This document shows positions 4,075 through 50,791 of a DNA stretch of 64,000 nt, one piece after another. This DNA is from a virus (lineage: Duplodnaviria; Heunggongvirae; Uroviricota; Caudoviricetes), in the IMG/VR virus record IMGVR_UViG_3300032321_001382; one strand, 5' to 3'. The notes under the pieces were generated by a model. The model made no database searches. It worked only from the letters and a program-made list of their open reading frames with translations, and was not told where the DNA came from. Each line of letters begins with the position of its first letter. Within the stretch, counting starts at the first letter, position 1. The position numbers and the translations under genes were made by a program.

Positions 4075-4080
4075 AAAAAA

Positions 4081-4537: not shown

Positions 4538-4873
4538 ATGAACAAAAAAACAAAAATGGTATTAGGAGTTGCAGCAATAGGTGCTGTTGCTTATTATTTC
4601 TGGAAGAAGTCTAAGACTGCAGCATTCGCTAATCAATCTGGACCAATAGGTATTTACCCAACTATTTATGGCTCTGGTGCTGCCGCAGAAAAGGCTATTA
4701 GTAGTTGTACTTGGCTTAAAAGATGTTCAAATGGAAAAGCTTACTGTTTCAATACCCAAGATGCTTATAGCAATTTCAAATGTCCAGTAGGCAATGAAGA
4801 TGTTAGATATAATCAAGCAAGCGTACTTGCACCAAAACAAAATGTACAACAAGGACGTATTTCTGGAATGTAA
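4538..4873 (+). CDS. signal-anchor paralog family member (MNKKTKMVLGVAAIGAVAYYFWKK)
   Basis: Same N-terminal family motif; 111 aa; Cys-containing ectodomain. Confidence 0.6.
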   Translation: MNKKTKMVLGVAAIGAVAYYFWKKSKTAAFANQSGPIGIYPTIYGSGAAAEKAISSCTWLKRCSNGKAYCFNTQDAYSNFKCPVGNEDVRYNQASVLAPKQNVQQGRISGM

Positions 4874-9581: not shown

Positions 9582-9591
9582 AAAAAATATT

Positions 9592-9894
9592 ATGGTAAAT
9601 TTTATTGATGAAGAAGGCTATGTGATTCCAGAACCTCCAATTCCAGAAGAAATGCATCCTTATGACCCTATAGATGATAGTTGGTTAAAAAGAATGACAG
9701 ATTCTGGTGTAGTTCGTCCTGATGATTTAATTACACCTACTCCTATGGCAGTATCTTCAGCGGTTGAAACACCTCCTCAAGTAGAAACTATCTTAGGAAA
9801 TGGGTTAACAAATTCTCAGAAATGGTCTTGGGTAATAGGTCTTACTTTTGCGGCTTGGGCTTTATTATATTGGTCTCAAAAAAAATCAAATTAA
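9592..9894 (+). CDS. C-terminally anchored acidic/Pro-rich protein
   Basis: 100 aa; C-terminal WSWVIGLTFAAWALLYWSQKK. Confidence 0.5.
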   Translation: MVNFIDEEGYVIPEPPIPEEMHPYDPIDDSWLKRMTDSGVVRPDDLITPTPMAVSSAVETPPQVETILGNGLTNSQKWSWVIGLTFAAWALLYWSQKKSN

Positions 9895-26804: not shown

Positions 26805-27488
26805 ATGTTAGGATTTTTTATAAAGACGCTCTCTCATCTGTTGTTATTCTATATCATAGTAATATCAATAGCGTATGCTTTATTAATATCTAATGGTACG
26901 TTACAATCAAAATATAAGCATCTTGTTAGAGAGTTTAAATATTCTGTATTAAGTCTCTTATTATTTAGTGTAATAGCTACTATTTTATATGAAACTAAAT
27001 TATTAAATTATACTACGCTATATTATAATATTAGTGAACATGGTTGGTTTTACTATTTTGGTATAATACCTATAATATTTCTTATATATGACTTTTATTT
27101 TTATCTCACACATATCTTAATGCATCATAAAAAATTATTTAATTTCTTTCATTTAACTCATCATAAATCTAAAGAGATTTCTCCCATGTCTGCTTTATCT
27201 ATGGACCCATTAGAAGCAATTATTAATCATGGAGCTTTACTTTTATTATTTTTATTATTTCCAATACATACATCTCATGTTTATTTATGGGTAGCAGTAA
27301 CAATAACTTATACTACTTATCTTCATTTAGGAACAGAGATATTTTCAAATAAATTCTTACAAACTAAGCTTGGAAAATTAATTAATACTACTACAACTCA
27401 TTCACAACATCACCTAAAATTTAAAGGTAATTATGGTTTTTATACTTTAATTTGGGATAAATTATTTAAAACAGAAAGAAATGCCTAA
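26805..27488 (+). CDS. fatty acid hydroxylase / sterol desaturase superfamily membrane enzyme (histidine boxes)
   Basis: 227 aa with several TM segments and the His boxes HILMHHKKLF, FHLTHHKSK and THSQHHLKFKGNYG, which match the di-iron HxxHH motifs of the FA_hydroxylase family. Confidence 0.65.
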   Translation: MLGFFIKTLSHLLLFYIIVISIAYALLISNGTLQSKYKHLVREFKYSVLSLLLFSVIATILYETKLLNYTTLYYNISEHGWFYYFGIIPIIFLIYDFYFYLTHILMHHKKLFNFFHLTHHKSKEISPMSALSMDPLEAIINHGALLLLFLLFPIHTSHVYLWVAVTITYTTYLHLGTEIFSNKFLQTKLGKLINTTTTHSQHHLKFKGNYGFYTLIWDKLFKTERNA

Positions 27489-30400
27489 TGTACCTATATC
27501 CAGTTTACCATTTACTAGTTCGGTAAATCCAACTGCCTTAGTACCCATAGTTCAAAATGGGATTACTTGCTCTACCTATGCTTGCTTATTAGGAAGTGGT
27601 GGAGGCGGAGGTGGTGGTAATGTTACTTGTTTAGTAGCTGGAAGTGGAGTTATTTTGAGTCCAACGACTGGTGTGGGTGTAGTAACAGTTACTAGTACGG
27701 GTAGTGGCTCAAGTGGTTCAAGTGGCTCTGCTGGAACAAGCGGCTCGAGTGGATTGTCTTTTGGTACAAGTGGTACAAGTGGTTTATCTTTTGGTACAAG
27801 TGGTACAAGTGGCGCAAATGGTACAAGCGGCTCAAGCGGGTCGAGTGGAATAAATGGTTCTAGTGGACAAACATTTGGTACAAGCGGAACTAGTGGTTTA
27901 TCTTTTGGTTCTAGTGGTACTGCTGGTACAAGTGGTTTATCTTATGGTACAAGTGGGACTAGTGGAGCTAATGGAACGAGTGGTTCTAGCGGTTCTAGTG
28001 GTTTCTCTTATGGTACAAGTGGAACTAGTGGTTTATCTTTTGGTTCTAGTGGTACAAGTGGTTTATCATTTGGTACTAGTGGTACTAGTGGCTCAAGTGG
28101 GTCTAGTGGCTCTAGTGGTACAACTTTTGGTTCTAGTGGTACATCTGGTTTATCTTATGGTACTAGTGGTACATCTGGTAGTTCAGGCTCTAGTGGTGCT
28201 ACTTTTGGTACTTCTGGTTCTTCAGGCACTTCTGGCTCTAGTGGATTAAGTTTTGGAACAAGTGGTACATCTGGCTCTAGTGGTACAACTTTTGGTACTA
28301 GTGGTACTAGCGGTACTAATGGTTCTAGTGGGTCAAGCGGTTTATCTTATGGTACAAGTGGAACAAGTGGCTCAAGTGGAGCTGCTGGTACTAGTGGTTT
28401 TACATATGGCACTAGTGGAACTAGTGGTTCGAGTGGAGCTGATGGAACTAGTGGAGAGACATATGGTACAAGTGGAACTAGTGGTTCGAGTGGAGCTGCT
28501 GGAACTAGTGGACAGACATATGGCACTAGCGGAACTAGTGGCTCAAGTGGAAGAAATGGCTCAAGTGGAACTAGCGGTTCAAGTGGAATTTCATTTTTCG
28601 GAACAACAAGTGGAACTAGCGGTACAAGTGGCTCAAGTGGAGCTGCTGGAACTAGTGGAGAAACATATGGTACAAGCGGCACTAGCGGGTCAAGCGGGAC
28701 CAGTGGCTCGAGTGGAACTAATGGCTCAAGTGGGACTAATGGCTCAAGCGGGACTAGCGGGACTAGTGGCTCGAGTGGGACGACTGGGACTAGCGGTTCA
28801 AGTGGTTCTGCTGGAACTAGTGGATTGTCTTTTGGCACAAGTGGAACTGCGGGAACCAGTGGAGAAACATTTGGTACAAGCGGTACTAATGGTACAAGTG
28901 GCACTAGTGGGTCTAGCGGGTCTAGTGGCTCCAGTGGTTCGAGTGGCTCGAGTGGGACTAGCGGGACTAGCGGTACAAGTGGTTCGAGTGGCTCGAGTGG
29001 TTCAAGTGGTTCGGCGGGAACGAGCGGTGCTACATTTGGAACAGCAGGAACCAGTGGTTCGAGTGGCTTAAGCGGTACAAGTGGTGTTAATGGATTAAAT
29101 GGTACAAGTGGTGTTAATGGTACAAGTGGCGTTAATGGTGTTAATGGTACAAGTGGGTTAAATGGAACGAGTGGCGTTAATGGAACGAGTGGGTTAAGCG
29201 GTACAAGTGGTTCTAGTGGTTCTAGTGGCTCAAGTGGTTCTGCTGGAACTAGTGGAGCAACATTTGGTTCAAGCGGTACAAGTGGCGTTGGAGGTATATT
29301 AATACTTGGTTCTGGTGCTAATTCTACAGAAAGATGCGGCGTTAATAATACGGCATCTGGCGCTTATTCATTCGCTGGCGCTGGTCAATGCAATATTGCT
29401 TGTGGTTGTGGTTCTTCAGTTATAGGTGGTCAATGTAATAGTGCTTGTGGAGCATTTACTGGTGCATTTGGTTGTAACCTTACTAATACACAAGCTTGTA
29501 CATTTATGGCTAACAACTTTGTTGTTGGTGACTTTATATCTTTTGGTGGATGTGGATGTGGTGTTAGTATAGATAATAGTGGAAAGTTATGCTTACAAGC
29601 TGGCGGAGGTGGCGGCGGTGGTGGTATAATAGTACTTGATAGTGGATGTAACTCATCTGTAAGATGTGGTGTAGGTAATTCAGCTACAGGAGCTTATTCA
29701 TTCGCTGGTGGTGGTCAATGTAATACTGCTTCAGGTAACTGCTCATTTGTTGGTGGTGGTTTTTCTCACTCAAATTGTGGCGTTTATTCTACAATAGTAG
29801 GGGGTCTTTGTAATTTAGCTTGTGGTGCTTGTAATGTATTTATAGGTGGTGGTATATGTCATAGTGCGTTAGCTGCTTCTACTACAATTGTAGGTGGGGT
29901 ATGTAATTATACTTGTGGAGCACATTCTTTCATAGGGGGTGGATTTGGTAATCGCACTCTAGCTCTTTGTTCAACTATTGTGGGAGGTTGTTGTAATTTT
30001 ATACTTGGCGGAACTTCTTATGGTTTCATAGGTGGTGGAAGTAATAATTGTGTCGCATATAGTACATCTCAAGGAAATTATGGAGTAGTCGTAGGTGGTA
30101 ATGGTAACACTGCTGGACCTAATTCTGCTGTAGTAGGTGGAAGTGGTAATACCGCTAGTACTTATAATATGTTTATAGGTGGTGGTGTTAATAATAAAAT
30201 ATGTGCAGACCATCAAAACGGTGTTATTGTTGGAGGTTGTGCTAATATAATATATCGTGGTTACAATAACTTTATAGGCGGTGGTCAAGCAAATTTTATT
30301 TGTGTTCCCACATTTGGTAGTGCATTTGGAACTTTAGTGGGTGGTTGCACAAATTGTATGTGTGGTCAATGTGGTTTTATTGGAGGTGGTGCTAAAAATC

Positions 30401-31743
30401 TTGTAGGAGCTTCTGCTAATGGTGGAGTTGTAGTAGGTGGTTTATGTGGTACAGCAAGTGGAGCTTATTCAGCCATAGTTGGTGGTCAAACTAACATAGC
30501 AAGTGCGACAAATTCTTTTGTAGGTGGTGGTCGTTGTAACTGCGCTACTGGTCTTTGTGCCGCTGTTTTAGGTGGTCAATGTAATACAGCAAGTGGTTGT
30601 TATTCTAATGTAGCTAGTGGATGTAAAAATACAGCAAGTGGTCGATATGCTGGTGTAGGAGGTGGTAAAGATATTCTTAATCAAGGTGGTTATAGTTTTA
30701 TAGGTAGTGGAATTAGTAATTGTACTGGTTCAAACTTAAATTTATATGCTTTTATAGGTTCTGGATTTGCAAATTGCGTTACTGGACCTTGTTCACTTGT
30801 TGCTGGTGGTGGTAGCAACTCAGCAAGTGGATATCATACAGCCATACTTGGTGGTCGTAATAATATATCCAGTGGTGCTTGTAGTGCTATTGTTGGTGGA
30901 TGCGCTAATTCATCTACTACTGCATTTAGTTTTGTAGGTGGTGGATGTAATAATATTGCTTGTGGTGCTGCAGCTACTATATCTGGCGGTTATTGTAACA
31001 GAGCAAGTGGAGCTTGTTCTACTATATCTGGTGGTTATGGCAACCTAGCAAGTGGTGGATGGTCAACTGTCGCTGGTGGTAATAGTAATGCTGCTTGCAC
31101 TTTTAATAATATTTTTGTAGGTGGTGGTGCTAGTAATAAAGGAAATTCTGCTGGAGCAACAATTGTAGGAGGTATTTTTAATTGTAGTGTAACTGGTATT
31201 TATACCTCTATTTTAGGTGGTGCTAGTAATACGGTATGTGGTGCTTGTTCTGCAATATTAGGTGGTTCTGGAAATATAACAACTGCAGCATTGAGTGGTG
31301 CATTTGGATGTAATGTTAACAATATTACAGCTTGTTCATTTATGTCTAACCAATTAATAGCTTGTAATATATTTGGAGCTGGGGCTATTTGTGCTGACGC
31401 AAATGGTGTAATTGTTCCAGTAGTTTCAGATAGCAGATTAAAGACAAATATTTGTCCTTTAAATTCTGGAATGGATAAGGTATCATTATTAAATCCAGTT
31501 AGCTTTGAATGGAAAGATGAATTTAAAAAATCAAATGGAATTGATAGACAAATAGGCTTTATCGCTCAAGAAGTTAAAGAGGTAGTACCAGAGGCGGTAT
31601 TTGTTACAACAAGTGGTAATTTTGGATTAAATGATAGCCCTATTGTAGCACTATTGACCAAGGTTGTTCAAGACCAAGAAAAAAGAATCAATACTTTAGA
31701 AAAAAGAGTAGAAAATCTAGAGTTTTTAATGAAAAATAAGTAA
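27481..31743 (+). CDS. 1420-aa fibre protein: collagen-like Gly-X-Y region, then Cys-rich Hep_Hag-like repeats, then C-terminal Peptidase_S74 chaperone domain
   Basis: About 530 aa of G(T/S)SG(S/T)(S/A/N)G triplets with periodic LSFG/TFG/TYG interruptions, including roughly 25 perfect GVN/GTS/GLN triplets. Downstream come the same linker module (GAFGCNLTNTQACTFMANNFVVGDFISFGGCGCGVSIDNSGKLC) and repeat type as the giant gene. The C-terminus is SDSRLKTNICPLN...IGFIAQEVKEVVPEAVF. Confidence 0.85.
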   Translation: MPNVPISSLPFTSSVNPTALVPIVQNGITCSTYACLLGSGGGGGGGNVTCLVAGSGVILSPTTGVGVVTVTSTGSGSSGSSGSAGTSGSSGLSFGTSGTSGLSFGTSGTSGANGTSGSSGSSGINGSSGQTFGTSGTSGLSFGSSGTAGTSGLSYGTSGTSGANGTSGSSGSSGFSYGTSGTSGLSFGSSGTSGLSFGTSGTSGSSGSSGSSGTTFGSSGTSGLSYGTSGTSGSSGSSGATFGTSGSSGTSGSSGLSFGTSGTSGSSGTTFGTSGTSGTNGSSGSSGLSYGTSGTSGSSGAAGTSGFTYGTSGTSGSSGADGTSGETYGTSGTSGSSGAAGTSGQTYGTSGTSGSSGRNGSSGTSGSSGISFFGTTSGTSGTSGSSGAAGTSGETYGTSGTSGSSGTSGSSGTNGSSGTNGSSGTSGTSGSSGTTGTSGSSGSAGTSGLSFGTSGTAGTSGETFGTSGTNGTSGTSGSSGSSGSSGSSGSSGTSGTSGTSGSSGSSGSSGSAGTSGATFGTAGTSGSSGLSGTSGVNGLNGTSGVNGTSGVNGVNGTSGLNGTSGVNGTSGLSGTSGSSGSSGSSGSAGTSGATFGSSGTSGVGGILILGSGANSTERCGVNNTASGAYSFAGAGQCNIACGCGSSVIGGQCNSACGAFTGAFGCNLTNTQACTFMANNFVVGDFISFGGCGCGVSIDNSGKLCLQAGGGGGGGGIIVLDSGCNSSVRCGVGNSATGAYSFAGGGQCNTASGNCSFVGGGFSHSNCGVYSTIVGGLCNLACGACNVFIGGGICHSALAASTTIVGGVCNYTCGAHSFIGGGFGNRTLALCSTIVGGCCNFILGGTSYGFIGGGSNNCVAYSTSQGNYGVVVGGNGNTAGPNSAVVGGSGNTASTYNMFIGGGVNNKICADHQNGVIVGGCANIIYRGYNNFIGGGQANFICVPTFGSAFGTLVGGCTNCMCGQCGFIGGGAKNLVGASANGGVVVGGLCGTASGAYSAIVGGQTNIASATNSFVGGGRCNCATGLCAAVLGGQCNTASGCYSNVASGCKNTASGRYAGVGGGKDILNQGGYSFIGSGISNCTGSNLNLYAFIGSGFANCVTGPCSLVAGGGSNSASGYHTAILGGRNNISSGACSAIVGGCANSSTTAFSFVGGGCNNIACGAAATISGGYCNRASGACSTISGGYGNLASGGWSTVAGGNSNAACTFNNIFVGGGASNKGNSAGATIVGGIFNCSVTGIYTSILGGASNTVCGACSAILGGSGNITTAALSGAFGCNVNNITACSFMSNQLIACNIFGAGAICADANGVIVPVVSDSRLKTNICPLNSGMDKVSLLNPVSFEWKDEFKKSNGIDRQIGFIAQEVKEVVPEAVFVTTSGNFGLNDSPIVALLTKVVQDQEKRINTLEKRVENLEFLMKNK
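27700..29290 (+). repeat. collagen-like Gly-X-Y coding repeat (low-complexity DNA)
   Basis: ggt/ggc/gga appears every 9 nt with act/agt/tct/agc in between; spurious antisense ORFs overlap it. Confidence 0.7.
31426..31740 (+). other. Peptidase_S74 intramolecular chaperone domain (C-terminus of second fibre)
   Basis: SDSRLKTNI...SFEWKDEF...RQIGFIAQEVKEVVPEAV. Confidence 0.8.
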
Positions 31744-32109: not shown

Positions 32110-32982
32110 ATGAATATTATATTCCAAATTTCTGGTGGAATTGGTAAATCTATTACATCCACAGCAGTCTGTAAAGCAATAAAAAAGAAATATCCAAACG
32201 ATAAATTAATCGTTGTTACTGGTTATCCAGATGTATTTACTAATAGTAAAGATGTAGATATGGCTTTTGGCTTTGGTCAAGAAGGCTATTTCTATACAAA
32301 ATACATAGAAAATCAAGATGTAAAAATAATGGCTTTAGAGCCATACGTAGTAACAGAGCACGTTCAACAAAAAGAACACCTTATCGAAACGTGGTGTAAA
32401 CTATGTGATGTGCCTTACAATGGAGAGCAGCCAGAGGTGTTTATAAACGATAGAGAGCGCTCTTTCTTCCAAGAAAAATATAAAAGTGATAAGCCAATTT
32501 TGTTAATGCAAACAAATGGCGGAGCAGAACAACAACAAGTAAAATACTCTTGGGCAAGAGATATTCCTCGCCATGTAGTAGATGCAGTTGTTAATGAATT
32601 CAGAAATGATTATAATATAGTTCATATTAAAAGAGAAGACCAATATGGTTTTGATGGCACTTTTGCAGTAACAGACAACTATAAAGGAATATCTGTTTTA
32701 ATCGAAATGAGCGAGAAAAGATTATTCATGGATAGTTTTGCTCAACACACTGCAGCGGCTATAAATAAGCCATCTACCGTTCTTTGGATAGCCAATACCC
32801 CAAAAGTATTCGGATATGAATTACATGAAAATATTGTATCAAATCCATTTACTGCTAAAGGAGATTTAAAGAATAGTTTTTTTGGAAAATTTAATATTGT
32901 TGGAGCTTTAGAAGAATTTCCTTACAAAAACGAATTAGAAATATTCGATGTAGAAAAAGTAATTGCTTCTCTTAAAAAATAG
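32110..32982 (+). CDS. GT9-family (heptosyltransferase-like) glycosyltransferase
   Basis: 290 aa. N-terminal MNIIFQISGGIGKSITSTAVCKAIKKKYPNDKLIVVTGYP resembles the ALGD-type N-terminus of LPS heptosyltransferases. The C-terminal region carries a DS..QHTAAA block. Confidence 0.5.
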   Translation: MNIIFQISGGIGKSITSTAVCKAIKKKYPNDKLIVVTGYPDVFTNSKDVDMAFGFGQEGYFYTKYIENQDVKIMALEPYVVTEHVQQKEHLIETWCKLCDVPYNGEQPEVFINDRERSFFQEKYKSDKPILLMQTNGGAEQQQVKYSWARDIPRHVVDAVVNEFRNDYNIVHIKREDQYGFDGTFAVTDNYKGISVLIEMSEKRLFMDSFAQHTAAAINKPSTVLWIANTPKVFGYELHENIVSNPFTAKGDLKNSFFGKFNIVGALEEFPYKNELEIFDVEKVIASLKK

Positions 32983-32987
32983 CATTT

Positions 32988-33155
32988 TGTAGGGTGGTGA
33001 AATAGAGGGAACTTCCCTTATGGCAAACACACCCACTCGTCTCGTGGGCGCAGATAACGAAATAGAAAAGTAGTAAGGGGTTGACCACCAGCTTGCAAGC
33101 ATAACTGCTACTTTCCGAATCGCTGCTTGAAGGTTCGACCCCTTCTCCTACAGCC
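32988..33155 (+). ncRNA. tRNA-like / tmRNA-like structured RNA
   Basis: The 5' TGTAGGG (32988-32994) pairs with the 3' TCCTACA (33146-33152) as a 7-bp acceptor stem, followed by discriminator G and CC. Next to it lies a canonical T-arm GAAGG-TTCGACC-CCTTC (33129-33145). About 130 nt intervene, containing ATG GCA AAC...GAA AAG TAG TAA, a short reading frame ending in a tandem stop. The RNA sits in an intergenic gap just upstream of a bidirectional terminator. Confidence 0.4.
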
Positions 33156-33197
33156 TTCCCTATAGTCTCAGTATTATAGGTCTGCTCCTTATGGGAG

Positions 33198-33226
33198 AAA
33201 AAAAAGCCCCTTGATTGGGGTTTTTT
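33198..33226. terminator. bidirectional rho-independent terminator
   Basis: AAAAAAAA-GCCCC-TTGATT-GGGG-TTTTTT. It lies between the + strand tRNA-like RNA and the minus-strand tRNAs. Confidence 0.75.
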
Positions 33227-33231
33227 AATTG

Positions 33232-33302
33232 ATGCTTCACTAAGATTCGAACTTAGACTAAGAGAACCAAAAACTCTGGTGCTACCATTACACTATGAAG
33301 CA
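33232..33302 (-). tRNA. tRNA, anticodon UUG (Gln) by my fold; imperfect anticodon stem
   Basis: Minus-strand sequence TGCTTCA-TA-GTGT-AATGGTA-GCAC-C-AGAGT-TTTTGGT-TCTCT-TAGT-CTAAG-TTCGAAT-CTTAG-TGAAGCA-T. It has a good acceptor, D arm and T arm (TTCGAAT loop) and one T-T mismatch in the anticodon stem. Confidence 0.5.
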
Positions 33303-33308
33303 TTATTG

Positions 33309-33395
33309 CGGAAGGTCAGGGATTCGAACCCCAGATACCATTTCTAGTATGCTAGTTTTCAAGACTAGTGCATTCAACCGCTCTGCCAACCTTCC
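33309..33395 (-). tRNA. tRNA-Ser (anticodon UGA), class II with long variable arm
   Basis: Minus-strand sequence GGAAGGT-TG-GCA-GAGCGGTTGAA-TGC-A-CTAGT-CTTGAAA-ACTAG-CATACTAGAAATGGTATC-TGGGG-TTCGAAT-CCCTG-ACCTTCC-G. 87 nt, with a 3-bp D stem and an 18-nt variable arm typical of tRNA-Ser. Confidence 0.8.
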
Positions 33396-33396
33396 T

Positions 33397-34005
33397 TTAT
33401 TTCCTTTTAACATACAAGCAATCAAATTGAAAATCCCAACATCTTTTCTTATCAACTAGCGAAAAACCCCTATCTAAAAGATATTTATTTATCTCACTAT
33501 CTATTTTTTGATTTTCAAAACAAACTCTCTCTTCCGTTTCGATTTGTATAGCTTTTATTTCATTTATCTTATCACCTAGACCATCTAAAACCTCATATCC
33601 ATGACCCTCTACATCAATTTTAATTAAATCAATTTGGAAATCAAAGGTATCTAGTCTTATAGACTTTACTATATTTTTCTCATATTCTAGATTGTCAACA
33701 TGAAAGGATTTTTTTATAGAAGAAATACCTCTAAGTAGTTCGTTGTCAGACACAACTGATAAAAATTCTATCTCACCATTTTCATTAGAAGCAGCTACAT
33801 TGTATACTTTATACTTATAATTATCAATTATGTTATTATATGACTTTACATCAGCTTCTATTATGTGACAATTTTCAGTATTTAAATTCCAATACTTGGA
33901 AACATAATCAGTATCCTTACCATCTCTGCTACCTACCTCCATAAAAGAAGTTGGTTTAAAATAAGGTTTTAATATATCTGTAAGTTGTCTTAAGTCGTTT
34001 CTCAT
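33397..34005 (-). CDS. FkbM-family methyltransferase
   Basis: 202 aa; SFMEVGSRDGKDTDYVSKYW matches the FkbM SAM-binding block (f.DiGAn.G). Confidence 0.55.
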   Translation of the reverse strand: MRNDLRQLTDILKPYFKPTSFMEVGSRDGKDTDYVSKYWNLNTENCHIIEADVKSYNNIIDNYKYKVYNVAASNENGEIEFLSVVSDNELLRGISSIKKSFHVDNLEYEKNIVKSIRLDTFDFQIDLIKIDVEGHGYEVLDGLGDKINEIKAIQIETEERVCFENQKIDSEINKYLLDRGFSLVDKKRCWDFQFDCLYVKRK

Positions 34006-34622
34006 TTTGATTGTATATTGGATTCAAACTCTTTATTTTGAACTATTGTATCAAATGGAATTACAATCCTAGTATTATATAGACCACTTTGGTTTGAATT
34101 CAAACTCATATGCTGTAATATTTTAGCATAAAAATTATCTATTTCCATACCACTAGGTATAGCCATATTAATTATATCATCATATATTTTATGTTTTAAA
34201 GCATAAGCATGAGCGCAAACAATTTGGTTTCTGAAAAAATTCTCTACCAATCCTCCAAAATATAATAAATCCCAATCATTAAGAATAGATTCGTTTAGCC
34301 CTAGTATTTTACTTGGATTATCTAAAATTTGTACATCATCTTCTAGAATTAAAATTTTGCCATATCCTTTTTCCTTTGCTATTTTAACTATTCCCAAATG
34401 AGAAGCACGACACCCTAAAGAGTTTAAAATATACTTATCATCTATTTTGTTAAAATTCCTCCAATACTTAGGTTCTGGTATCTCTGTAAAGCTAATAGCA
34501 TCAAACCTTTCAAAGTTTGTTATACCAAATTTATCAAACTGCGCTAATAGGTTATTTTTCCTATTAACATCTTTTGCTAAATTTATATAAAATATTTTGT
34601 CAAAATACTTATTAATGTCCAT
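34002..34622 (-). CDS. glycosyltransferase family 25 (LPS/LOS-type)
   Basis: 206 aa; MDINKYFDKIFYINLAKDVNRKNNLLAQFDKFGI...FDAI is the GT25 N-terminal signature. Its start overlaps the upstream gene. Confidence 0.65.
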   Translation of the reverse strand: MDINKYFDKIFYINLAKDVNRKNNLLAQFDKFGITNFERFDAISFTEIPEPKYWRNFNKIDDKYILNSLGCRASHLGIVKIAKEKGYGKILILEDDVQILDNPSKILGLNESILNDWDLLYFGGLVENFFRNQIVCAHAYALKHKIYDDIINMAIPSGMEIDNFYAKILQHMSLNSNQSGLYNTRIVIPFDTIVQNKEFESNIQSK

Positions 34623-35443
34623 TATTTGCTATATCTAAAGTATTTAAAAAACCATTCGTGATTAGTGTAAATCCAATCACATACTTCTTTGGTTAATAAT
34701 GCTTTGGCTTTAGAAGGAGTCAACTTAAGTTGTTTTCTAATAGTGTGGTCTCCAAAAGCTCCATAAACCTCATCATCTTCTTTAGTAACTTGTTCAATAT
34801 TATCAAAATCGTGTTTAAAGTGTGTAATACCTAAATATTGATAAATCTTAGTCATGGTACTATCTGGATAAAGGCATAAATCCTCATATTTTATAAATAA
34901 AATCTTAGCATCATTTCCAGTTCGGATGATTTCTTGTAATCTTTCAATAGCCATACCCACTGGAGGATTCTGTAGCCAAAAGTCGATACGCTTAGGAACC
35001 GTTGTGGCTTGACCAGTTGACCAATTCACAATTCCTTGGCTCTTTTCTGGATTTTTTCTAAAATTACCCTCCATAGAAGCAAAAACATCTCTCAAATCCC
35101 TAACCATACAAATAATCTTAGGTTCTTCACCTCTAATGCTTGTAAGAAAATCGAAATGAATACCCCAACCTCTGCTTTTGTCAATAACATACTTTTTATC
35201 AGTAATAGAATTATAGAAAGCATCCATACCCTCTTTGCAAAAGGCTGTATAACCCTTTTTCATTAGTTCTTTGTCTTGGGCAATAAATTCTGGTGATGTG
35301 CTATAATTCTCTCTAGCAGCAAAAATAAGCTCTAAAACACCACTCGTAGGAGTTGCGTAAATATCTGGATTTTGTGCTAAAATGTTCTGAAGCATTGTGC
35401 TTCCAGCTCTAGGTAGTGAGCTTTGAAAAAATAAATTTTCCAT
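34622..35443 (-). CDS. PAPS-dependent sulfotransferase
   Basis: 273 aa; 5'-PSB-like LPRAGSTML and 3'-PB-like MVRDLRDVFASM motifs. Confidence 0.7.
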   Translation of the reverse strand: MENLFFQSSLPRAGSTMLQNILAQNPDIYATPTSGVLELIFAARENYSTSPEFIAQDKELMKKGYTAFCKEGMDAFYNSITDKKYVIDKSRGWGIHFDFLTSIRGEEPKIICMVRDLRDVFASMEGNFRKNPEKSQGIVNWSTGQATTVPKRIDFWLQNPPVGMAIERLQEIIRTGNDAKILFIKYEDLCLYPDSTMTKIYQYLGITHFKHDFDNIEQVTKEDDEVYGAFGDHTIRKQLKLTPSKAKALLTKEVCDWIYTNHEWFFKYFRYSK

Positions 35444-35726
35444 AATGTAGTTTCGCTTTAAAAAATGATTAATTTTACTACACGAAAGTAAAAATAAAAT
35501 ACCATAAAAGGAAATAAATTATGAAAAAAGTTGACATTCGTTTTAACACCAATTTCCCATCTAGAAGCCAATACGAATGGCGTGTATTAATTAATGGAGA
35601 TGGGGTTTCTATTCTTACATTGTTTCCTATACTACAGCTACATTTATTGAGGGTCATGGTATGAAATGGCACTTATCTACAGAAGCAAATGAAATAGAGA
35701 TTGATAACTCTTTAATTACCAACAAA

Positions 35727-36803
35727 TTAGCTATTATTAAGTAAGTGTTCTATATCAGTTAATACCCTATCTAGAGATATTTTCTTATGACACTCGAATT
35801 GTCTAGGTGTATCCTCATGCTCTGGACACCAATTCCAATCTCCTTTGTTAAATTTGAATAATTCATTGTTCCAACATCCATTACATATGCTTGTATCACT
35901 TATTCTGGTACAATCTGACTGAAATTCATGTGTATTTACCGAGAAGTTGGAAATCATCACAACCTTTTTATTTAAAGCCCAAGAAAGCCAAGACAATCCG
36001 CTTGATAAGCCAATAAAGAACTCTGAGTGATGTATTATATTGCTTACATTTTGTATTGACTTATCTTCTATATTAACAATATTTTTAAACTCGTTTTTCT
36101 CCATAGAAACCTCAATTACCTTATATCCTCTTTCATTTAATGAGTCAATTAATTCCTGCCAATAGTACCAAAGTTTACATTGGGATGTAGAAAAGGTAGA
36201 TATAGCTATATATTTCTCTTTTATAGGGCGCTCCATTACTTCAAAATCTACATATGGTTTAATTTCCTTAAATGGAATATTTAAAATATTTGTTGCGTTT
36301 TTTTGTAAGGGGATAGTGGATGGATTTACTGGTTCTTTTTTATCATCGTAAAACCAACCTAACTCGAATCCAGCATGAATATTTTCTATTAACTCTCCTT
36401 TTTCAGTAAAATTTATATGTGGATATTTGTTACGAAATAGATTATTATGAAAACATGATACAATAACATCACATTTGTAAAAATTTCTAAACTCTTCGCA
36501 ATAAGGCATCCAAGCTATAGTATCACCTAATGAACTACTTTCAAAATTTATAAGCACTCTTTTACCTTGAATTTCATCCTTTATACTTATTTTTTTTACA
36601 AAATTACCCTCAAATGTCACTAAAACAAAAATATCAGAAAAGTACTTTTTATCTAATCTAGCCCAACTACTCGGTTTTAACTTTGTTTGATAAATTATTT
36701 CATTCTTCTCTAAAAAACAAACATCGTATTCCCTATCTAACCCACCATCATTAAGTATTTCAAAAAATAAACCATCTACATGATGAATATTATATGTAAT
36801 CAT
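35727..36803 (-). CDS. GT9-like glycosyltransferase with C-terminal Cys4 cluster (resembles autotransporter protein-heptosyltransferases)
   Basis: 358 aa. KRVLINFESSSLGDTIAWMPYCEEF is an ALGD-type N-motif, and FFIGLSSGLSWLSWALNKKVVMI matches the DSG..HLA block. The C-terminus carries a CNGCW...WCPEH...FECH cysteine cluster. Confidence 0.5.
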   Translation of the reverse strand: MITYNIHHVDGLFFEILNDGGLDREYDVCFLEKNEIIYQTKLKPSSWARLDKKYFSDIFVLVTFEGNFVKKISIKDEIQGKRVLINFESSSLGDTIAWMPYCEEFRNFYKCDVIVSCFHNNLFRNKYPHINFTEKGELIENIHAGFELGWFYDDKKEPVNPSTIPLQKNATNILNIPFKEIKPYVDFEVMERPIKEKYIAISTFSTSQCKLWYYWQELIDSLNERGYKVIEVSMEKNEFKNIVNIEDKSIQNVSNIIHHSEFFIGLSSGLSWLSWALNKKVVMISNFSVNTHEFQSDCTRISDTSICNGCWNNELFKFNKGDWNWCPEHEDTPRQFECHKKISLDRVLTDIEHLLNNS

Positions 36804-37840
36804 TTATATAAGTTTAAATATTTTTCTTTAGTTAATCTAGAGGATACATTATTGTCAAACTTTGTCACGCTAGAATACATATAAGACAATGATTTACAAA
36901 CATTTATCCAATCATATTTTAATCTAGATTTACTCATTTCGTATACCCATACATCATAGTTTCCAATTATATGTTTTATACCATCAATTAGGCACATAGT
37001 CATTAAAGAGCCAGATGGTAATGGTTCCTGAATTACATACATACCATCAATATCTTTTGTACCCTTGTAAGTACCAACGATGGGTAAACAACAACTAGCT
37101 GATTCCAATAATGTCAAATTTGGATGACCAGCTTCTAAAAAAGAAGGATGTAAAAATATTGTGTGTTCTTTATATATATCTAAAAGTTCATTTTCAGTTG
37201 GGTTATTATCTATAATTCTTAGATTGCTATATTCTAATAGGTCTTTATGCAAATCAAAAAATTGTTTATTTGCTTGGGCTCCTACTATTGTTATGGGCAA
37301 GTTTAATTCTTTTGCAGCATTTATTCCATGTATAAAACCCTTTCTATCAATACTTTGGTCTCCAGCTAATCCATTATTAGCTACCATAAGTAATTTATGG
37401 TTTACATAATCATTTTTAAAACTTGGAGTAAAAAAGCTAGTGTTTACGCCATGTGACAAGTAAAATAATTTATCTGTTTCTTCAAAATATTGAATTAAAT
37501 GCTCTGCGTGTGTTATTGAGAATATAGAACCTTTCATAGCTTCTAAATTTTGCTTGTATACGTCACTATCTTTTCCATACCATTCTGTGTGGTGGTCATG
37601 CAATGAGAAAATATATGGTATATTACGACTTTTTGCCTCTAAGCATAGATTAGCCATATGTATATGAACTATGTCATATTCCATTGGTCTGATATCGTTT
37701 AGGTACTTAATATCAACACTATGTCCTAGTTCTTCAAAAGAACTTTTATATTCTCTTATAATTTTCTCAACAGCTCCCCAACCCATTTCCCCAATAGGTT
37801 TAATTGGAATCATTCCCGTTTGCAATTGGCAAATTCTCAT
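36800..37840 (-). CDS. GT4-family (GT-B) glycosyltransferase
   Basis: 346 aa; the C-terminal FLHPSFLEAGHPNLTLLESASCCLPIVGT matches the GT4 E-x7-E region. Confidence 0.65.
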   Translation of the reverse strand: MRICQLQTGMIPIKPIGEMGWGAVEKIIREYKSSFEELGHSVDIKYLNDIRPMEYDIVHIHMANLCLEAKSRNIPYIFSLHDHHTEWYGKDSDVYKQNLEAMKGSIFSITHAEHLIQYFEETDKLFYLSHGVNTSFFTPSFKNDYVNHKLLMVANNGLAGDQSIDRKGFIHGINAAKELNLPITIVGAQANKQFFDLHKDLLEYSNLRIIDNNPTENELLDIYKEHTIFLHPSFLEAGHPNLTLLESASCCLPIVGTYKGTKDIDGMYVIQEPLPSGSLMTMCLIDGIKHIIGNYDVWVYEMSKSRLKYDWINVCKSLSYMYSSVTKFDNNVSSRLTKEKYLNLYK

Positions 37841-40527
37841 ATAAATGTTTTTTCTTGTTTATCAATAAGTGAATATCCATTCAATTGTGTCGTTATCCTA
37901 TGCTTCAAAATACCCATCTTGTATGGAGATTTTTTAAAAATAGTATTGAAATATATATCAGCAGCATCCCATTTGTGAGTCCTCAATGTTTCAAACAACC
38001 ATTTTTTAGTATATTTTGGGAACATAATACATTGTAAACCAATTATCTTGTCGGTAATAAACAATAAATCTTGATTAGGTATTTCTTCAATTACATTTGA
38101 CTGCAACCACCCATGCTCTAAAGTTCTAGTATCTCCAAATGACATATAACCAATATTGTTTTTAGTAACAATTTTCAAAGAATTACTTATTATATCTATA
38201 AACTCATTTATAGTACTTTCTATTAAACAATCTCCCTCACAAACTATAAGAAAATCTTCGTCATCGAACTCTGTTAATATAGCATTTTTAAAAGATTCGT
38301 AACACCCATAATGAGAGGGTGTAAGAGCTGTTCCAATTTCCTGAATGCGATTTTCTTCAAATAAAAACATAGATACGCAAGCTGGTCTTAAACAATTACC
38401 CCTTGGTGGCAAATCGCTATATGGCTCGTTTGTGTGTAATACATACTCCCATCCAAAATCCTTAACTCTTTCTAAAGACTCTTTGCTTATTTTATGCTTT
38501 TCATCATTAAGTGTAGTTTGAATATGGACTAATTTTATTTTTGGCATTTTATTTTTATGCTTGAAGCTTCCAGTTTTATCGTAATCATTTATATTTTTTT
38601 CATTCATTAAATATTTTTCAACTTTATATATGTCATCTCCATCGTAAAACTCTAGTATTATTTCAATTTCTTTTCCATCATAATAAAACTCTTTTTTAAA
38701 CTCCCTAGTCTTATTTATTTGGAAACTATTATTGTAAAACTCTAATCCATTTTCTTTCATTGTAACATTTATCTTCCTTTCATCTATGTTATAAGTAAAA
38801 AAGTAAAACATATATTTATTTACAAACTCAATAGGCAAAATTGAGTAGTACTCTGAATTTGAAGCTACGCCAACACCGCTATTGGTTAAAAATGTATCTT
38901 GTTCATTTTCAATAAGATGAACGTCATTTTCATTAAATGATAATACCTTCTTAACTAGATAATCTTCTAAAAAATTCTGAGCTCCAATATTTTCACAAGC
39001 ACGATTGTAAGACTCTGCATCTCTTACATTATCAAAATTGTGTAAAAAGAAATCAACGCTAAAAGTCATTCCATTTGTTTGTATACCTCTTCCAAATGGC
39101 GTAGCTAGTGTTCCCAAATAGGCTTGACATTTGCCAGATTCTATATAACTAAGAGATTCATTTATAGTAGCTAAGTCATCCTCATGTACAACAACATCAT
39201 AGGTATTATAAAAGAAACGCCTATATCCAAGCTCCCTTGCTAGTTTGGCTCCATTGTACATATTGGTGAGAACAGTTAATGATTGATTGCTATTCTTTAA
39301 TCCATTGATATTTATATCAACCTCGTATTCATTATTGTAATTAAAAAACTTTGTATAAAAACTATGATGCGTCAAGGGATTATTCGCGTCATATACATAA
39401 TAATCAACCATTTTTTGTATTTCTAAATCCACGGGGTAATGTGAAACAAGCATTATCTTCCTTTCTAATTTATAAAGACTTTGTATTGTATCCTTAGTAA
39501 GCTGAACCCTACTTTTTAAATTAGGATAAGTACCAATTATAATAAGCTCTTCTCCATTTACCTTGGGCTTTGGGTTAGTGATTCTCAATATAATATTAGA
39601 ATCCTCCTTCAAATCATCAACTAAAAAATTGAAATTATGCTCATTATTATACCTATTCAAATAAACATCTAGATTAAATAATAGCTTAGGTACATCATCA
39701 AATTTTATTGCCTCTTTGATAACTATTGGGTTTAGTTCTTTGTTATACTTGTCGCCCCTAGATGGAAATAAAAACAAATCGCAAGCCCTAATAAATTCTT
39801 CGGTATCATCTCTTTCTCCCCAAATGATACAATTACTTGGCTTATTATTCATTAGTGGCTGCCAATAACTTGAAAAATTTTCAGCAGTATTACCTAGAAA
39901 ATGAAATTTAATTTTGTAATCTTCTAAACTTTTAGCCAATTCAAATGCATATTTCTGATTCTTTCTAGGGGTAAATAATCCAATAACAACAACGTGCTTA
40001 TAATCGTCTTGCAGTCCTAGTATTTTTCTACTTTCTTTTCTATCTCTATTATATTTATCTACTGGGTACTCTATCAAACTTGTAGGAACATCAAAATCTC
40101 TATATTTTAATAACGTATAAGGACTTACAAAAACAAACTCATCTGGTAAAAAAACCTTGTCTTCAACTTTAAAGCTAGAGTCATGTGTCGTTTCAACTAT
40201 CTTGTATGTCCTATCTTTTTTATATATCAATTTAGCAATCTCACTATCCATAAACATTTCAGGAAACTCCTCCATAGCAATAACGCTTGGATTATATGCT
40301 TGTATTATATTGACTATTAGGCTCTTATCTTCTCCTAGGGAAATAAAGTGGTCGTTTCCGATTAAATCTATAATACGATTTCTTTGTACTATAAAAGTAT
40401 TCGATAGGAAGCTGTACTCTATCAATAATATTTCAAAATCATCTTTTAATAATTCGATTTTATTGGCTGTCACTTGTGGAGCACCGCCAGTTGAACAATG
40501 TGGGGTTATAACTAAAAGTTTTTTCAT
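37837..40527 (-). CDS. 896-aa multidomain glycosyltransferase (N-terminal GT-B-like plus additional domains)
   Basis: N-terminal MKKLLVITPHCSTGGAPQV is Rossmann-like; large central and C-terminal regions follow. It is translationally coupled to flanking glycosyltransferases through 4-nt overlaps. Confidence 0.55.
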   Translation of the reverse strand: MKKLLVITPHCSTGGAPQVTANKIELLKDDFEILLIEYSFLSNTFIVQRNRIIDLIGNDHFISLGEDKSLIVNIIQAYNPSVIAMEEFPEMFMDSEIAKLIYKKDRTYKIVETTHDSSFKVEDKVFLPDEFVFVSPYTLLKYRDFDVPTSLIEYPVDKYNRDRKESRKILGLQDDYKHVVVIGLFTPRKNQKYAFELAKSLEDYKIKFHFLGNTAENFSSYWQPLMNNKPSNCIIWGERDDTEEFIRACDLFLFPSRGDKYNKELNPIVIKEAIKFDDVPKLLFNLDVYLNRYNNEHNFNFLVDDLKEDSNIILRITNPKPKVNGEELIIIGTYPNLKSRVQLTKDTIQSLYKLERKIMLVSHYPVDLEIQKMVDYYVYDANNPLTHHSFYTKFFNYNNEYEVDININGLKNSNQSLTVLTNMYNGAKLARELGYRRFFYNTYDVVVHEDDLATINESLSYIESGKCQAYLGTLATPFGRGIQTNGMTFSVDFFLHNFDNVRDAESYNRACENIGAQNFLEDYLVKKVLSFNENDVHLIENEQDTFLTNSGVGVASNSEYYSILPIEFVNKYMFYFFTYNIDERKINVTMKENGLEFYNNSFQINKTREFKKEFYYDGKEIEIILEFYDGDDIYKVEKYLMNEKNINDYDKTGSFKHKNKMPKIKLVHIQTTLNDEKHKISKESLERVKDFGWEYVLHTNEPYSDLPPRGNCLRPACVSMFLFEENRIQEIGTALTPSHYGCYESFKNAILTEFDDEDFLIVCEGDCLIESTINEFIDIISNSLKIVTKNNIGYMSFGDTRTLEHGWLQSNVIEEIPNQDLLFITDKIIGLQCIMFPKYTKKWLFETLRTHKWDAADIYFNTIFKKSPYKMGILKHRITTQLNGYSLIDKQEKTFI

Positions 40528-41459
40528 ATAATTTCTAATATTTTATTAAATACTTGTTCTGTTGATGGGTGACATTCATATGTCTTTTTGTTTTCTAAGC
40601 ATCCTATAAGTGGGGGAACTCCTTGAATATCGCCCCATTGCTTAACTCCATGCTTCATATTAGAGGCACATTCCAAATTACACGAACCACGAACATAATT
40701 GTATTTGTAGGTTTGACTTAATTTTCTATATGGAGCTCTAAATTCTGGCTTTATAGAAGAGCCTAAATGTATAATATTAGAATCAGTTGTTCCAGCTAAA
40801 TGTAATAAACCAGAGTCCATGGTTACAAAACAAGAAGCCTTGTCAATAAGATTCCAGCAATCAGAAATTGATGTTTTATTCATAAGATTCAATCCATTTT
40901 CTATACTAAAATTAAAAACTGGCTTTTCAACATCAAAAAACCCCATCTCTTTTGAGTCTTTCCCAATAGAGACAACGCTAATACCATTATCATTAAGCAT
41001 TTTCGTCAACAACATCCAATTTATATCTCCCCAAGTTCTACTTTCCCAAGTACTTACTGGGTGTATTAGAACATATCTATCTGGTATTGTGATATTTAAC
41101 TCTTCAATAGGACGATAAAAACACTCTAACTCGTCTTTACCTAGCATAAATCCCAAGCTGATTGCATGAAATTGTCTAATATCTATCATATTGTGCTTGT
41201 ACTCAATCCCCTTTTCATTTTTACCACCAATATTGTAAAATGAATTATGTACTATGTAATTTTTATTTATATAATCCATATTTACCGAGCTTATTTTTAA
41301 ACTTTTATCTACATAGATATTGTTTTTAAATAGCTCTGGCATTAAAGATAGTATGGTTATCTTTTGTTCGTAAGATTCTGATAATTTTTTAATAGTTGGA
41401 GTTGAGCAAATCAAGTCTCCAAGTCCCTTGCACTCACCTAGATTTAAACAAACTTTCAT
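40524..41459 (-). CDS. GT9 heptosyltransferase-like glycosyltransferase with C-terminal Cys cluster
   Basis: 311 aa. LIHPVSTWESRTWGD...DSGLLHLAGTTDSNIIHLGSS is the classic GT9 C-domain. The C-terminal region carries CNLECAS...C...YECH. Confidence 0.65.
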   Translation of the reverse strand: MKVCLNLGECKGLGDLICSTPTIKKLSESYEQKITILSLMPELFKNNIYVDKSLKISSVNMDYINKNYIVHNSFYNIGGKNEKGIEYKHNMIDIRQFHAISLGFMLGKDELECFYRPIEELNITIPDRYVLIHPVSTWESRTWGDINWMLLTKMLNDNGISVVSIGKDSKEMGFFDVEKPVFNFSIENGLNLMNKTSISDCWNLIDKASCFVTMDSGLLHLAGTTDSNIIHLGSSIKPEFRAPYRKLSQTYKYNYVRGSCNLECASNMKHGVKQWGDIQGVPPLIGCLENKKTYECHPSTEQVFNKILEII

Positions 41460-50119: not shown

Positions 50120-50791
50120 TTAAATTTTATTGTTAAATGGTATAGTGAATTTTTCTAATAATGGAACGTTGCCCCATTTGTCAATATATCTTTGCCTATT
50201 GTATCTCATAGATAAGTTAACCAAATCTGGGGCTTTCTCATATGTTTGACTAACTAGTGCATCTTTTGGATTCAATTGATTATTTACTTCATGTTGTAAG
50301 CCATGCAGCTTTAATCTATACATATAATCGCTATCCTCAAAATAAGCTGGGAAAAAACCTTCATCAAACTCACCTATGTACTCGTACAAGTCTTTGTTAA
50401 TTAAAATTACAGACCAATTTAACTCAGATTGAACCAATCCAACCTCGCTCATTTCTATACACATATTAACTCTTGTATTACCATATCCCAAGTAAACATC
50501 ATCATTAATAATTAAAGCCCAATCTTGTTTTGCAAAAATTAATCTACAGAGCTTATTCCAAGATGCAGCAACACCAATGTTTTCTTTTTGATTATGTACG
50601 TAAATCTGTACGTTTTCTTCTAAATTACTTAGACCTTGATTACCATTATCAATAATATGAATATCTATATCTTTAAAATCTTTTAGGTACTTTTCAATTG
50701 ATGGTAGTAATAGGTCTGCTCTATTAAGTGTGGGTATTCCTATTGAGAACATAATATAAGTTTTTTTTAAAAAAAGGGGCGGGAAACACAA
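50120..50791 (-). CDS. GT2-family (GT-A fold) glycosyltransferase
   Basis: 223 aa; MFSIGIPTLNRADLLLPSIEKYL and the IINDDVYLG DxD-like region. Confidence 0.55.
   Translation of the reverse strand: MCFPPLFLKKTYIMFSIGIPTLNRADLLLPSIEKYLKDFKDIDIHIIDNGNQGLSNLEENVQIYVHNQKENIGVAASWNKLCRLIFAKQDWALIINDDVYLGYGNTRVNMCIEMSEVGLVQSELNWSVILINKDLYEYIGEFDEGFFPAYFEDSDYMYRLKLHGLQHEVNNQLNPKDALVSQTYEKAPDLVNLSMRYNRQRYIDKWGNVPLLEKFTIPFNNKI

Follow-up and report, generated by a model that had tools for sequence, protein, structure and literature searches.

The DNA analysed here, hereafter the window, is a 64,000-nt stretch of the IMG/VR virus record IMGVR_UViG_3300032321_001382 (Caudoviricetes), and the subject of this study is an element of about 167 nt at positions 32988-33154 of its + strand, an RNA derived from a class II, that is long-arm, transfer RNA (tRNA). 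The element occupies a gap between convergent units, starting 5 nt past the stop codon of a gene for a 290-aa protein (32110-32982) and followed by a terminator-like hairpin (33198-33226), beyond which lie minus-strand genes for a tRNA-Gln (33231-33302) and a tRNA-Ser (33308-33395). The hairpin, read in the sequence as AAAAAAAA-GCCCC-TTGATT-GGGG-TTTTTT with an A run and a T run, can serve both convergent units; a simple terminator scanner made no call at these positions, and comparable hairpins occur 3' of the element in relatives as well. An earlier note on this DNA had placed the element in a gap of this kind, typical of phage small RNAs and tRNAs and adjoined by a terminator and a tRNA pair, and this placement is confirmed.

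The element can be drawn as a complete cloverleaf, all of it on the + strand. The acceptor stem is formed by UGUAGGG (32988-32994, with U1, G2 and U3 conserved) and UCCUACA (33146-33152), which give six Watson-Crick pairs and a G7.U66 pair. The T arm, GAAGG-UUCGACC-CCUUC (33129-33145), contains G53-C61, U54, U55, C56, a purine at 57 and A58, is supported by covariation and abuts the acceptor 3' strand, after which come the discriminator G73 (33153), C74 (33154) and C75 (33155); A76 is not encoded. The acceptor helix, canonical T arm and discriminator G had been recognized earlier, and they stand, both in the sequence and by covariation. The same note held that the element lacks a D arm and an anticodon arm; this does not hold, since a 3-bp D stem and a 5-bp/7-nt anticodon arm are present, conserved and covarying. 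The segment comprising U8, G9 and the D arm (32995-33031) follows the D-arm pattern of ordinary phage tRNA-Leu genes: GUG (32997-32999) pairs with CAC (33028-33030) in a stem that covaries in the larger set of relatives, the loop AAAU...GGCAAA carries A14, A15, G18, G19 and A21, and position 26 is an A (33031). In the window element this leucine-type D loop is split by an 18-nt insert with a hairpin, GAGGGA-ACU-UCCCUU (33005-33019 in the constrained fold). The anticodon arm (33032-33048) has the stem CCCAC/GUGGG, all five pairs of which covary, and the 7-nt loop UCGUCUC, with the anticodon G34-U35-C36 at 33039-33041, U37 at 33042 and C38 at 33043. The variable arm measures 80 nt (33049-33128, its last base being U48) and consists, in the RNAalifold consensus, of a basal helix, an internal loop with a conserved GAAAUAG, a helix of about 9 bp and a three-way junction bearing the hairpin GGGGUUGACCACC (33077-33089) and a palindromic apical hairpin, GCUUGCAAGC (33091-33100).

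Downstream of the element, a trailer hairpin, CCUAUAG-UCUCAGUA-UUAUAGG (33159-33180, + strand), lies in a 43-nt insertion that is absent from relatives in the alignment of the closest copies, and it may or may not be part of the mature RNA. The loop motif of this trailer hairpin, UCUCAGU, recurs in the D-loop hairpin of relatives (for example GGGUUGU-CUCAGUU-AUGACC at locus L024), while the D-loop hairpin of the window differs in sequence, so that the motif appears to have been relocated.

Standard detectors pass over the element. ARAGORN with default settings did not call it, and its transfer-messenger RNA (tmRNA) mode, run with default, -ps and -ps80 settings, reported no tmRNA in the region. 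A search of the region with Rfam made no call at the gathering score, the element falling below the 29-bit threshold of the tRNA family RF00005, and at E-values up to 10 it returned noise and terminator-like matches only, with no tmRNA match. The fold of the single sequence is likewise unremarkable (z-score of the minimum free energy -1.15), and its T loop is mis-paired with the variable arm; the cloverleaf-constrained fold has -45.7 kcal/mol versus -49.6 for the unconstrained minimum. By our own rough estimate, a 7-nt complement would arise by chance within about 200 nt in 3-5% of cases. The single sequence by itself thus proves nothing; the proof comes from the comparative data.

Relatives were reached in three ways, through the neighbouring gene, through the D-arm pattern and through a variable-arm pattern, and among them every helix shows compensatory changes. 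BLAST against 50,697 phage genomes returned no homologue in a cultured phage, the T-arm matches being to tRNAs only; exact-word scans of IMG/VR with the 3' end and with a core 22-mer gave no match, and a metagenome word scan gave one true relative among 12 matches. None of 23 IMG/VR relatives of the 290-aa gene (43-72% identity) has the element within 3 kb; closer relatives of the protein (80-92% identity) led to contigs that carry it. In the element-bearing contigs the upstream gene varies (a radical-SAM gene, a methyltransferase gene or the 290-aa gene itself), and across the neighbour-anchored relatives the element is kept though the flanks diverge. The four closest copies share an invariant 80-nt core, the variable arm being the most conserved part, and show compensatory changes in the acceptor stem (G5-C68 to A-U; G7.U66 to A-U or G-C) and in the T stem (GAAGG/CCTTC to AGAGG/CCTCT or GGAGG/CCTCC). 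Two distant copies, L045 and L048, retain the 5' end TGTAGGG-TGGTGAAAT, the block GGCAAACAC, the T arm and the 3' end, together with a hairpin whose loop is NNGTCTC on stems of wholly different sequence (CTATC/GATAG and CTTCC/GGAAG, next to CCCAC/GTGGG in the window); between this hairpin and the T arm lies an unrelated, self-complementary sequence.

A scan of IMG/VR with the pattern TGGTGAAAT-N(0-30)-TGGCAAACAC returned at least 120 loci, mostly ordinary phage tRNA-Leu genes in which the D-arm string is contiguous and comprises U8, G9, the stem GUG/CAC and the loop AAAUUGGCAAA. This bears on a short reading frame, GCA AAC...GAA AAG TAG TAA, that had been taken to recall a tmRNA tag. The frame is indeed open, but it is not a tag: because ordinary phage tRNA-Leu genes have the same string as their D arm, GCA AAC is G19-C20-A21 onward, within the D-loop block GGCAAACAC. 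The AUG ahead of the GCA is not conserved (TATGGCA becomes CTCGGCA or CTTGGCA in relatives), nor is the would-be tag peptide ANTPTRLVGADNEIEK, whose counterparts in L045 and L048 read ANTLSSLDSVLTK or ANTLPCLGSVHKNYAFTNREHYK, and the frame crosses covarying helices.

The structure was examined in a core-cloverleaf alignment of 23 sequences with their inserts trimmed. All of its 460 cells are paired, a percentage inflated by a parser that demanded partial pairing; the compensatory counts are unaffected. Compensatory changes occur in 15 of the 20 pairs (acceptor stem 6/7, anticodon stem 5/5, T stem 4/5), and covariation reaches 0.448 as against 0.148 in shuffled alignments, with none of 500 shuffles attaining it and slid registers only 42-56% paired. 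The 7/5 acceptor/T-stem geometry fits every sequence with 100% pairing, and U8, A14, A15-U48, G18, G19, U54, U55, C56, A58 and G53-C61, as invariant columns, are all in place. Given a plain MAFFT alignment of 15 long members, RNAalifold found the full cloverleaf without guidance, along with the D-loop hairpin and a multi-helix variable arm. The latter is made up of 4 basal base pairs, an internal loop in which GAAAUAG is invariant, a longer helix of about 9 bp and, at the apex, two hairpins. In the variable-arm and D-loop-hairpin helices, pairing extends to 99.3% of cells and compensatory changes are seen in 14 of 28 pairs, again a level reached by none of 500 shuffles. The earlier note had offered, as one alternative, a tRNA with a degenerate insert or intron; this comes close, the RNA being derived from a tRNA and carrying two inserts, but the expansions are structured and conserved, not degenerate, and bear no mark of an intron.

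For an independent covariance model, R1, 10 IMG/VR sequences were used, all from outside the lineage of the window. Searched against the 64-kb window, it gave a single strong match, at 32988-33154 (+), with 154.4 bits, an E-value of 2.7e-50 and alignment to model positions 1-173 of 173, whereas the two real tRNAs of the window scored 25 and 22 bits. Across the loci examined, long members score 135-207 bits, short members 58-106 and ordinary tRNAs at most 40. The variable-arm word GGGTNGACCACCNGCTTGCAAGC by itself occurs in at least 120 IMG/VR contigs, and R1 matches in 98 of 100 loci found with that word. That the window element belongs to a tRNA-derived family is, in our judgement, very nearly certain. 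The apical hairpin of the variable arm is perfectly palindromic in three versions, GCUUGCAAGC, GCUGCAGC and GCCGGC (window 33091-33100; L172, L061, L184); this suggests selection for self-complementarity, for example for RNA dimerisation or as a site at the DNA level.

The family spans 92-177 nt overall. Adding GTC to the D-arm scan gave 33 IMG/VR loci, and together with the neighbour-anchored set 28 distinct members of 92-172 nt were parsed. The two 92-nt members, L161 and L174, are called tRNA-Asp(gtc) by ARAGORN, and L174 matches the Rfam tRNA model with 43 bits. Short members have unrelated arms of 17-53 nt and keep GUC, C38, G73 and C74. D loops measure 11 to 38 nt, with a hairpin of other sequence at the same place, or none, in relatives. 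The element is usually the last gene ahead of a terminator and is typically placed about 5 nt 3' of a tRNA-Ser, or at or overlapping the stop codon of varying upstream genes; at L026 and L045 (4403-4407) the upstream methyltransferase open reading frame (ORF) stops at a TAG within the acceptor strand TGTAGGG, an overlap in which cleavage by RNase P would set the 3' end of the mRNA. The contig of L155, which bears a short family member, also has at 9585-9645 a match to the Pistol ribozyme (RF02679; 37.1 bits, gathering score 34.5). When bacteria were scanned with one genome for each species, the soil bacterium Mucilaginibacter segetis SD-g proved to have two chromosomal copies in tandem (L186, 5741-5857 and 5885-5997, minus strand; loops UUGUCGC and UUGUCCC), and the scan also found long copies on small contigs of a Bacteroidetes metagenome-assembled genome (MAG) and of an Alphaproteobacteria MAG. 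One M. segetis copy scores 32.5 bits with the Rfam tRNA model, and the neighbouring genes are ordinary (ComM-like, methyltransferase, acyltransferase, Lrp/AsnC regulator, RlmI-like), with no prophage context. The last 26 nt of the window element (33129-33154) recur unchanged as the end of one M. segetis copy and in none of the other loci compared, an identity that may be a clue to the host lineage or to phage and host copies having recombined.

The amino acid identity of the RNA was considered in 68 distinct full-length sequences (148-177 nt), anchored on the variable arm only, with no anticodon or D-arm criterion, and aligned by fitting to a covariance model. G34, U35 and C36 are present in 68/68 and C38 in 67/68, while position 37 is U in 62 and C in 6, and position 33 is U in 48, C in 16 (C also being the base of the window) and A in 4. 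U1, G2, G73 and C74 occur in all 68, as do C71 and A72 pairing with G2 and U1; positions 1-3 read UGU in 64/68. U48 is always present, T loops are UUCRANN throughout, and the D stem is ACG/CGU in 20, GCG/CGC in 18 and GUG/CAC in 18. Past C74 the bases differ among relatives, so that C74 is the only conserved part of CCA. The bacterial Asp identity set consists of G73, G10, G34, U35, C36 and C38 (PMC9976931), and the window has all six. In the family the sole invariant or near-invariant bases of the anticodon loop and acceptor end are the five strong Asp determinants, G34, U35, C36, C38 and G73. Because these five are conserved, the host AspRS most likely binds the RNA, and it probably charges it. 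The features of a tRNA-Leu are absent, the discriminator being G73 and not A73 and the anticodon GUC and not leucine; G73 is known to block LeuRS and TyrRS (PMC9976931). Loci found through the D arm only fall into two unmixed classes, one with leucine anticodons, A73 and G1, the other with GUC, G73 (one T) and U1-A72 (one A-U). A joint switch to GUC and G73 on a leucine-type body is what a change to Asp identity would need. Outside the family, two leucine-type class II tRNAs with GUC but A73 were seen, in a Planctomycetota MAG (L181, 4716-4806) and on the chromosome of a Gammaproteobacteria MAG (L187, about 2491-2589); their anticodon loops, CUGUCAC and UUGUCAC, are canonical, and they may insert Leu at Asp codons or represent another identity variant.

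Whether such an RNA decodes is a separate matter. Decoding tRNAs almost always have a purine at 37. Of the two features expected of a decoding elongator, U33 and a purine at 37, the window has neither (C33, U37). Aspartate, moreover, requires a tight-binding tRNA body. With the published model in which three T-stem base pairs set EF-Tu binding (PMC3239215), the predicted T-stem score of the family is +0.5 to +2.1 kcal/mol (window +0.7), and that of 17 distinct ordinary tRNA-Asp genes from the same loci is -1.1 to 0.0, with no overlap of the ranges; predicted binding of the family is thus 1-3 kcal/mol weaker than that of the ordinary tRNA-Asp of the same contigs. The 51-63 pair is never G-C in the family. 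On the 310-kb contig of L093 an ordinary tRNA-Asp(gtc) and a family member occur together.

From the tRNA shape and the genomic setting, a course of events can be proposed. The RNA would be part of a longer transcript, shared with the upstream gene or with a tRNA next to it, would be released by RNase P and the 3' tRNA-trimming enzymes, and completed at its 3' end by the CCA-adding enzyme, which would be needed because only C74 (in the window also C75) is encoded. The host AspRS would then bind and probably charge it, and the RNA would be kept from ribosomal decoding, as the constant pyrimidine 37, the dispensable U33 and the weak predicted EF-Tu binding suggest. Its role would lie outside translation, where it would carry Asp, bind AspRS or take the place of tRNA-Asp, with the variable arm as a specialised module that could recruit a partner, dimerise through its palindromic loop or sense a ligand. 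Candidate end uses are those of an Asp donor, of a means of titrating AspRS, and of a decoy or substitute for tRNA-Asp under attack; the RNA could supply Asp to a reaction that depends on tRNA but not on the ribosome, or, during infection, titrate a host factor that is directed at tRNA-Asp. The chain as a whole, that of a tRNA-derived, AspRS-recognised, non-decoding RNA, has in our view about an even chance of being right. We put forward only tentatively the fuller proposal that it is a dedicated non-translational Asp-type tRNA, encoded by phages of freshwater and soil bacteria and by at least one Bacteroidota chromosome, recognised by AspRS, held off the ribosome and equipped with a functional arm.

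Several observations weigh against this interpretation. G10 is present in only 39/68 members, U1-A72 stands where bacterial tRNA-Asp has G1-C72, and the short class I variable loop is missing. AspRS is a class II enzyme that approaches the tRNA from the variable-loop side, and the 80-nt arm might clash with this approach. The identity rules derive from Escherichia coli, Thermus thermophilus and yeast, and the hints as to the host point to Bacteroidota. SerRS ignores the anticodon, and what it needs (long arm, G73, G2-C71) is all present. The EF-Tu score is predicted on the basis of three base pairs, and the values of +0.6 to +0.7 of most members are also seen in ordinary Gln, Tyr and Val tRNAs. 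U33 is retained in 48/68, so many members may decode. No conserved protein partner stands beside the element across the phage lineages examined; where genes do recur near it, in one and the same lineage, they are sugar methyltransferases or match nothing in Pfam. Finally, the 23-sequence alignment was pre-filtered for pairing and the 68-sequence alignment was model-fitted.

The retention of U33, which extends to most short members, would be expected if the RNA were a working elongator tRNA-Asp for the decoding of GAY codons, its odd positions 32, 33 and 37 and its bulky arms serving to resist a tRNA-Asp-directed anticodon nuclease or modification enzyme. The cloverleaf and its tertiary bases are complete, GUC is invariant, short members score as tRNA-Asp and the genes are placed in tRNA arrays. 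Phage tRNAs that evade nucleases through anticodon-loop changes have been proposed before (PMC10264068), and since colicin E5-type nucleases require Y33-G34-U35 (PMC1635277), the A33 variants of the family would escape them. We nevertheless consider a working elongator unlikely, in view of the pyrimidine at 37 in 68/68, the C33 of the window and a predicted EF-Tu affinity 1.2-3.2 kcal/mol weaker than that of 17/17 ordinary tRNA-Asp; an 80-nt arm with a three-way junction and a D-loop hairpin at the elbow are without known precedent among ribosomal substrates, and L093 already has a normal tRNA-Asp.

Charging by SerRS would have the RNA insert serine at Asp codons or act as a serine scaffold for a tRNA-dependent conversion, in the manner of tRNA-Sec or the allo-tRNAs. 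On its class II body of leucine type the RNA has G73, which belongs to the serine identity set along with G2-C71 and a large variable region (PMC9976931). The element often lies 5 nt 3' of a tRNA-Ser, and in the Ser-type (8/4) allo-tRNAs GUC is one of three anticodons that predominate (PMC5389517). The set is found only in part: G73, G2-C71 and the large variable region are there, while A72 takes the place of the C72 of the bacterial set and the window has U11-A24 in place of C11-G24, which does occur in members with ACG or GCG D stems. Serine charging would also leave unexplained the invariant G34, U35, C36 and C38, the exact AspRS contacts, and mistranslation of Asp to Ser in more than 100 phages looks costly, so that we give this explanation a small probability.

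The conservation of the variable arm raises the question of whether the tRNA body is a mere scaffold, for processing and stability, and the arm is the active part, as a protein- or RNA-binding or dimerising element that is never aminoacylated. Close relatives conserve the 80-nt arm more than any other part, the arm occurs in at least 120 contigs, its purine-rich internal loop is conserved, and its apical hairpin stays palindromic in three versions. Short members with unrelated arms, on the other hand, keep GUC, C38, G73 and C74, which makes the tRNA part the core of the family, and invariant G73 and C74 imply use of the 3' end; the scaffold explanation is accordingly one we find rather improbable.

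Far less probable still is a tRNA with one or two introns, a decayed pseudogene or a 3' tRNA fragment of a phage attachment site (attP). ARAGORN run with -ps -i does propose a tRNA with a 93-nt intron (tRNA-Ser/Gly solutions) at exactly 32988-33155, and the 26 nt shared with the 3' end of the M. segetis chromosomal copy are as expected of an attP core. The stem of the ARAGORN solution, GGGAA/UUUCC, is missing from relatives, where the sequence differs, and the inserts, of 15 and 80 nt, lie in the D loop and variable region, form covarying helices that run on from the cloverleaf, and fall short of the size of group I or II introns. A pseudogene or fragment is rejected on full-length conservation and compensatory changes in more than 100 contigs, and an attP on the conservation of the full-length element and the absence of an integrase domain in the 30 window ORFs scanned, among which no tRNA enzymes, aminoacyl-tRNA synthetases or integrase were found. 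A minimal or two-piece tmRNA-like RNA adding the tag ANTPTRLVGADNEIEK on stalled ribosomes, the layout originally favoured in that the acceptor/T-arm pair encloses an open GCA-start frame with two stops, is scarcely credible, since the 3-70 pair is U-A in 21 and C-G in 2 of the 23 relatives and never G.U (it is U-A in the window), the RNA has both a D stem and an anticodon arm, and neither ARAGORN nor Rfam detects a tmRNA.

Among known systems, the family shares with phage tRNA-Leu the D arm UGGUGAAAU..GGCAAACAC, the 3-bp D stem, A15-U48, an arm between the anticodon and T arms and the setting in tRNA arrays, and differs in G73, GUC, a 17-80-nt variable arm, the D-loop hairpin insert and pyrimidine 37. 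Normal class II variable arms measure about 10-25 nt. With bacterial tRNA-Asp it has in common the invariant or near-invariant G73, G34, U35, C36 and C38, G2-C71 and, in the window, G10; unlike it, the family has a class II body, U1-A72 in place of G-C, a pyrimidine in place of A at 37 and much weaker predicted EF-Tu binding, and it coexists with a normal tRNA-Asp (L093). The allo-tRNAs (8/4 and 9/3; Mukai et al., PMC5389517) are non-canonical long-arm tRNAs of metagenomes and phages, in which GUC is common and for some of which a regulatory or non-coding role has been suggested. They resemble the family in the long arm, the GUC and an anticodon that does not match the body type; the family differs in its 7/5 geometry, far larger arms, D-loop hairpin and conserved pyrimidine 37. 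In Staphylococcus, a non-proteinogenic tRNA-Gly, whose T-stem pairs weaken EF-Tu binding, escapes translation and supplies glycine for the cell wall (PMC3239215). By analogy, this would be the nearest functional counterpart, being likewise an extra copy beside a normal isoacceptor with a weak-EF-Tu signature (for the family a predicted one), although that tRNA has ordinary dimensions and a known acceptor enzyme, FemX/A/B.

Species 1 RNA of phage T4 (rnaC, 139 nt) is also a stable phage RNA in a tRNA cluster, with an acceptor-like helix, a canonical T arm (CCGGG-UUCGAAU-CCCGG) and a body of about 100 nt; R1 gave no match at E-values up to 1e-8, and rnaC shows neither a D arm of leucine type nor a GUC loop, so that rnaC and rnaD, lacking a model match, are analogues in architecture only. 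The tmRNA (SsrA) also builds an acceptor stem and a T arm from the two ends of a longer RNA, whereas the element has an anticodon arm and neither G3.U70 nor a conserved tag, and no pseudoknots were found in it. Other phage RNAs combine a leucine-type D arm and a T arm/acceptor with unusual bodies of 107-140 nt (L148, 3383-3502, 4374-4480 and 7096-7178; L093, 8138-8277; L121, about 3027-3150), one of them with a GNRA hairpin in place of the anticodon arm, and expansion of the tRNA scaffold in phages may be a wider phenomenon. In the gap between element and terminator, L045 (about 4545-4680) and L048 (about 4010-4140) share a conserved block of about 130 nt with complementary ends, CCTACCTCTAwTAGTAGAAGTCGTAAGTAGCTAATACGATG ... 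AGAGTAGG, for which Rfam gives nothing meaningful and which may be a further small RNA.

The wider window has features of its own. The tRNA-like gene lies at the convergence point of a glycan-modifying block (32110-41459 and 50120-50791), which comprises two GT9 heptosyltransferase-like genes (the 290-aa gene is so annotated by the Joint Genome Institute as well), two GT1/GT4 genes, GT25, GT2, an FkbM methyltransferase and a sulfotransferase, to which the block of relatives adds an APS kinase and a radical-SAM/SPASM gene. An 874-aa ORF (55148-57772) contains extracellular repeats of eukaryotic type (cEGF, Sushi/SCR, TIL, DUF5874), unusual in a phage, and there are a 3913-aa ORF (12007-23748) and a gene for a 1420-aa collagen-like fibre protein with Gly-Thr-Ser repeats (27481-31743).

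Literature searches, mostly without subscription journals, found no description of the family, and Rfam 15 holds no matching family. To our knowledge, variable arms end at about 25 nt and hairpins in the D loop are not a known feature. Its novelty lies in how large the variable arm is, in the hairpin of the D loop, in the pyrimidine conserved at position 37 and in how abundant these RNAs are in phages; as a tRNA derivative the family is not categorically new. Size and shape are among the most constrained traits in biology where tRNAs are concerned, and here an abundant family breaks the limits on both the variable arm and the D loop, yet keeps the bases of the tertiary core and those that AspRS reads, under strong purifying selection. 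As ARAGORN and Rfam overlook such RNAs, inventories of phage tRNAs count too few. Mucilaginibacter segetis, which is cultured and has two copies, opens the question to bench testing. If the RNA is charged and does not decode, it would be the second natural non-translational tRNA after the staphylococcal cell-wall tRNA-Gly, and a virus-borne one; if it does decode, the range of substrates that the ribosome accepts would need to be redefined.

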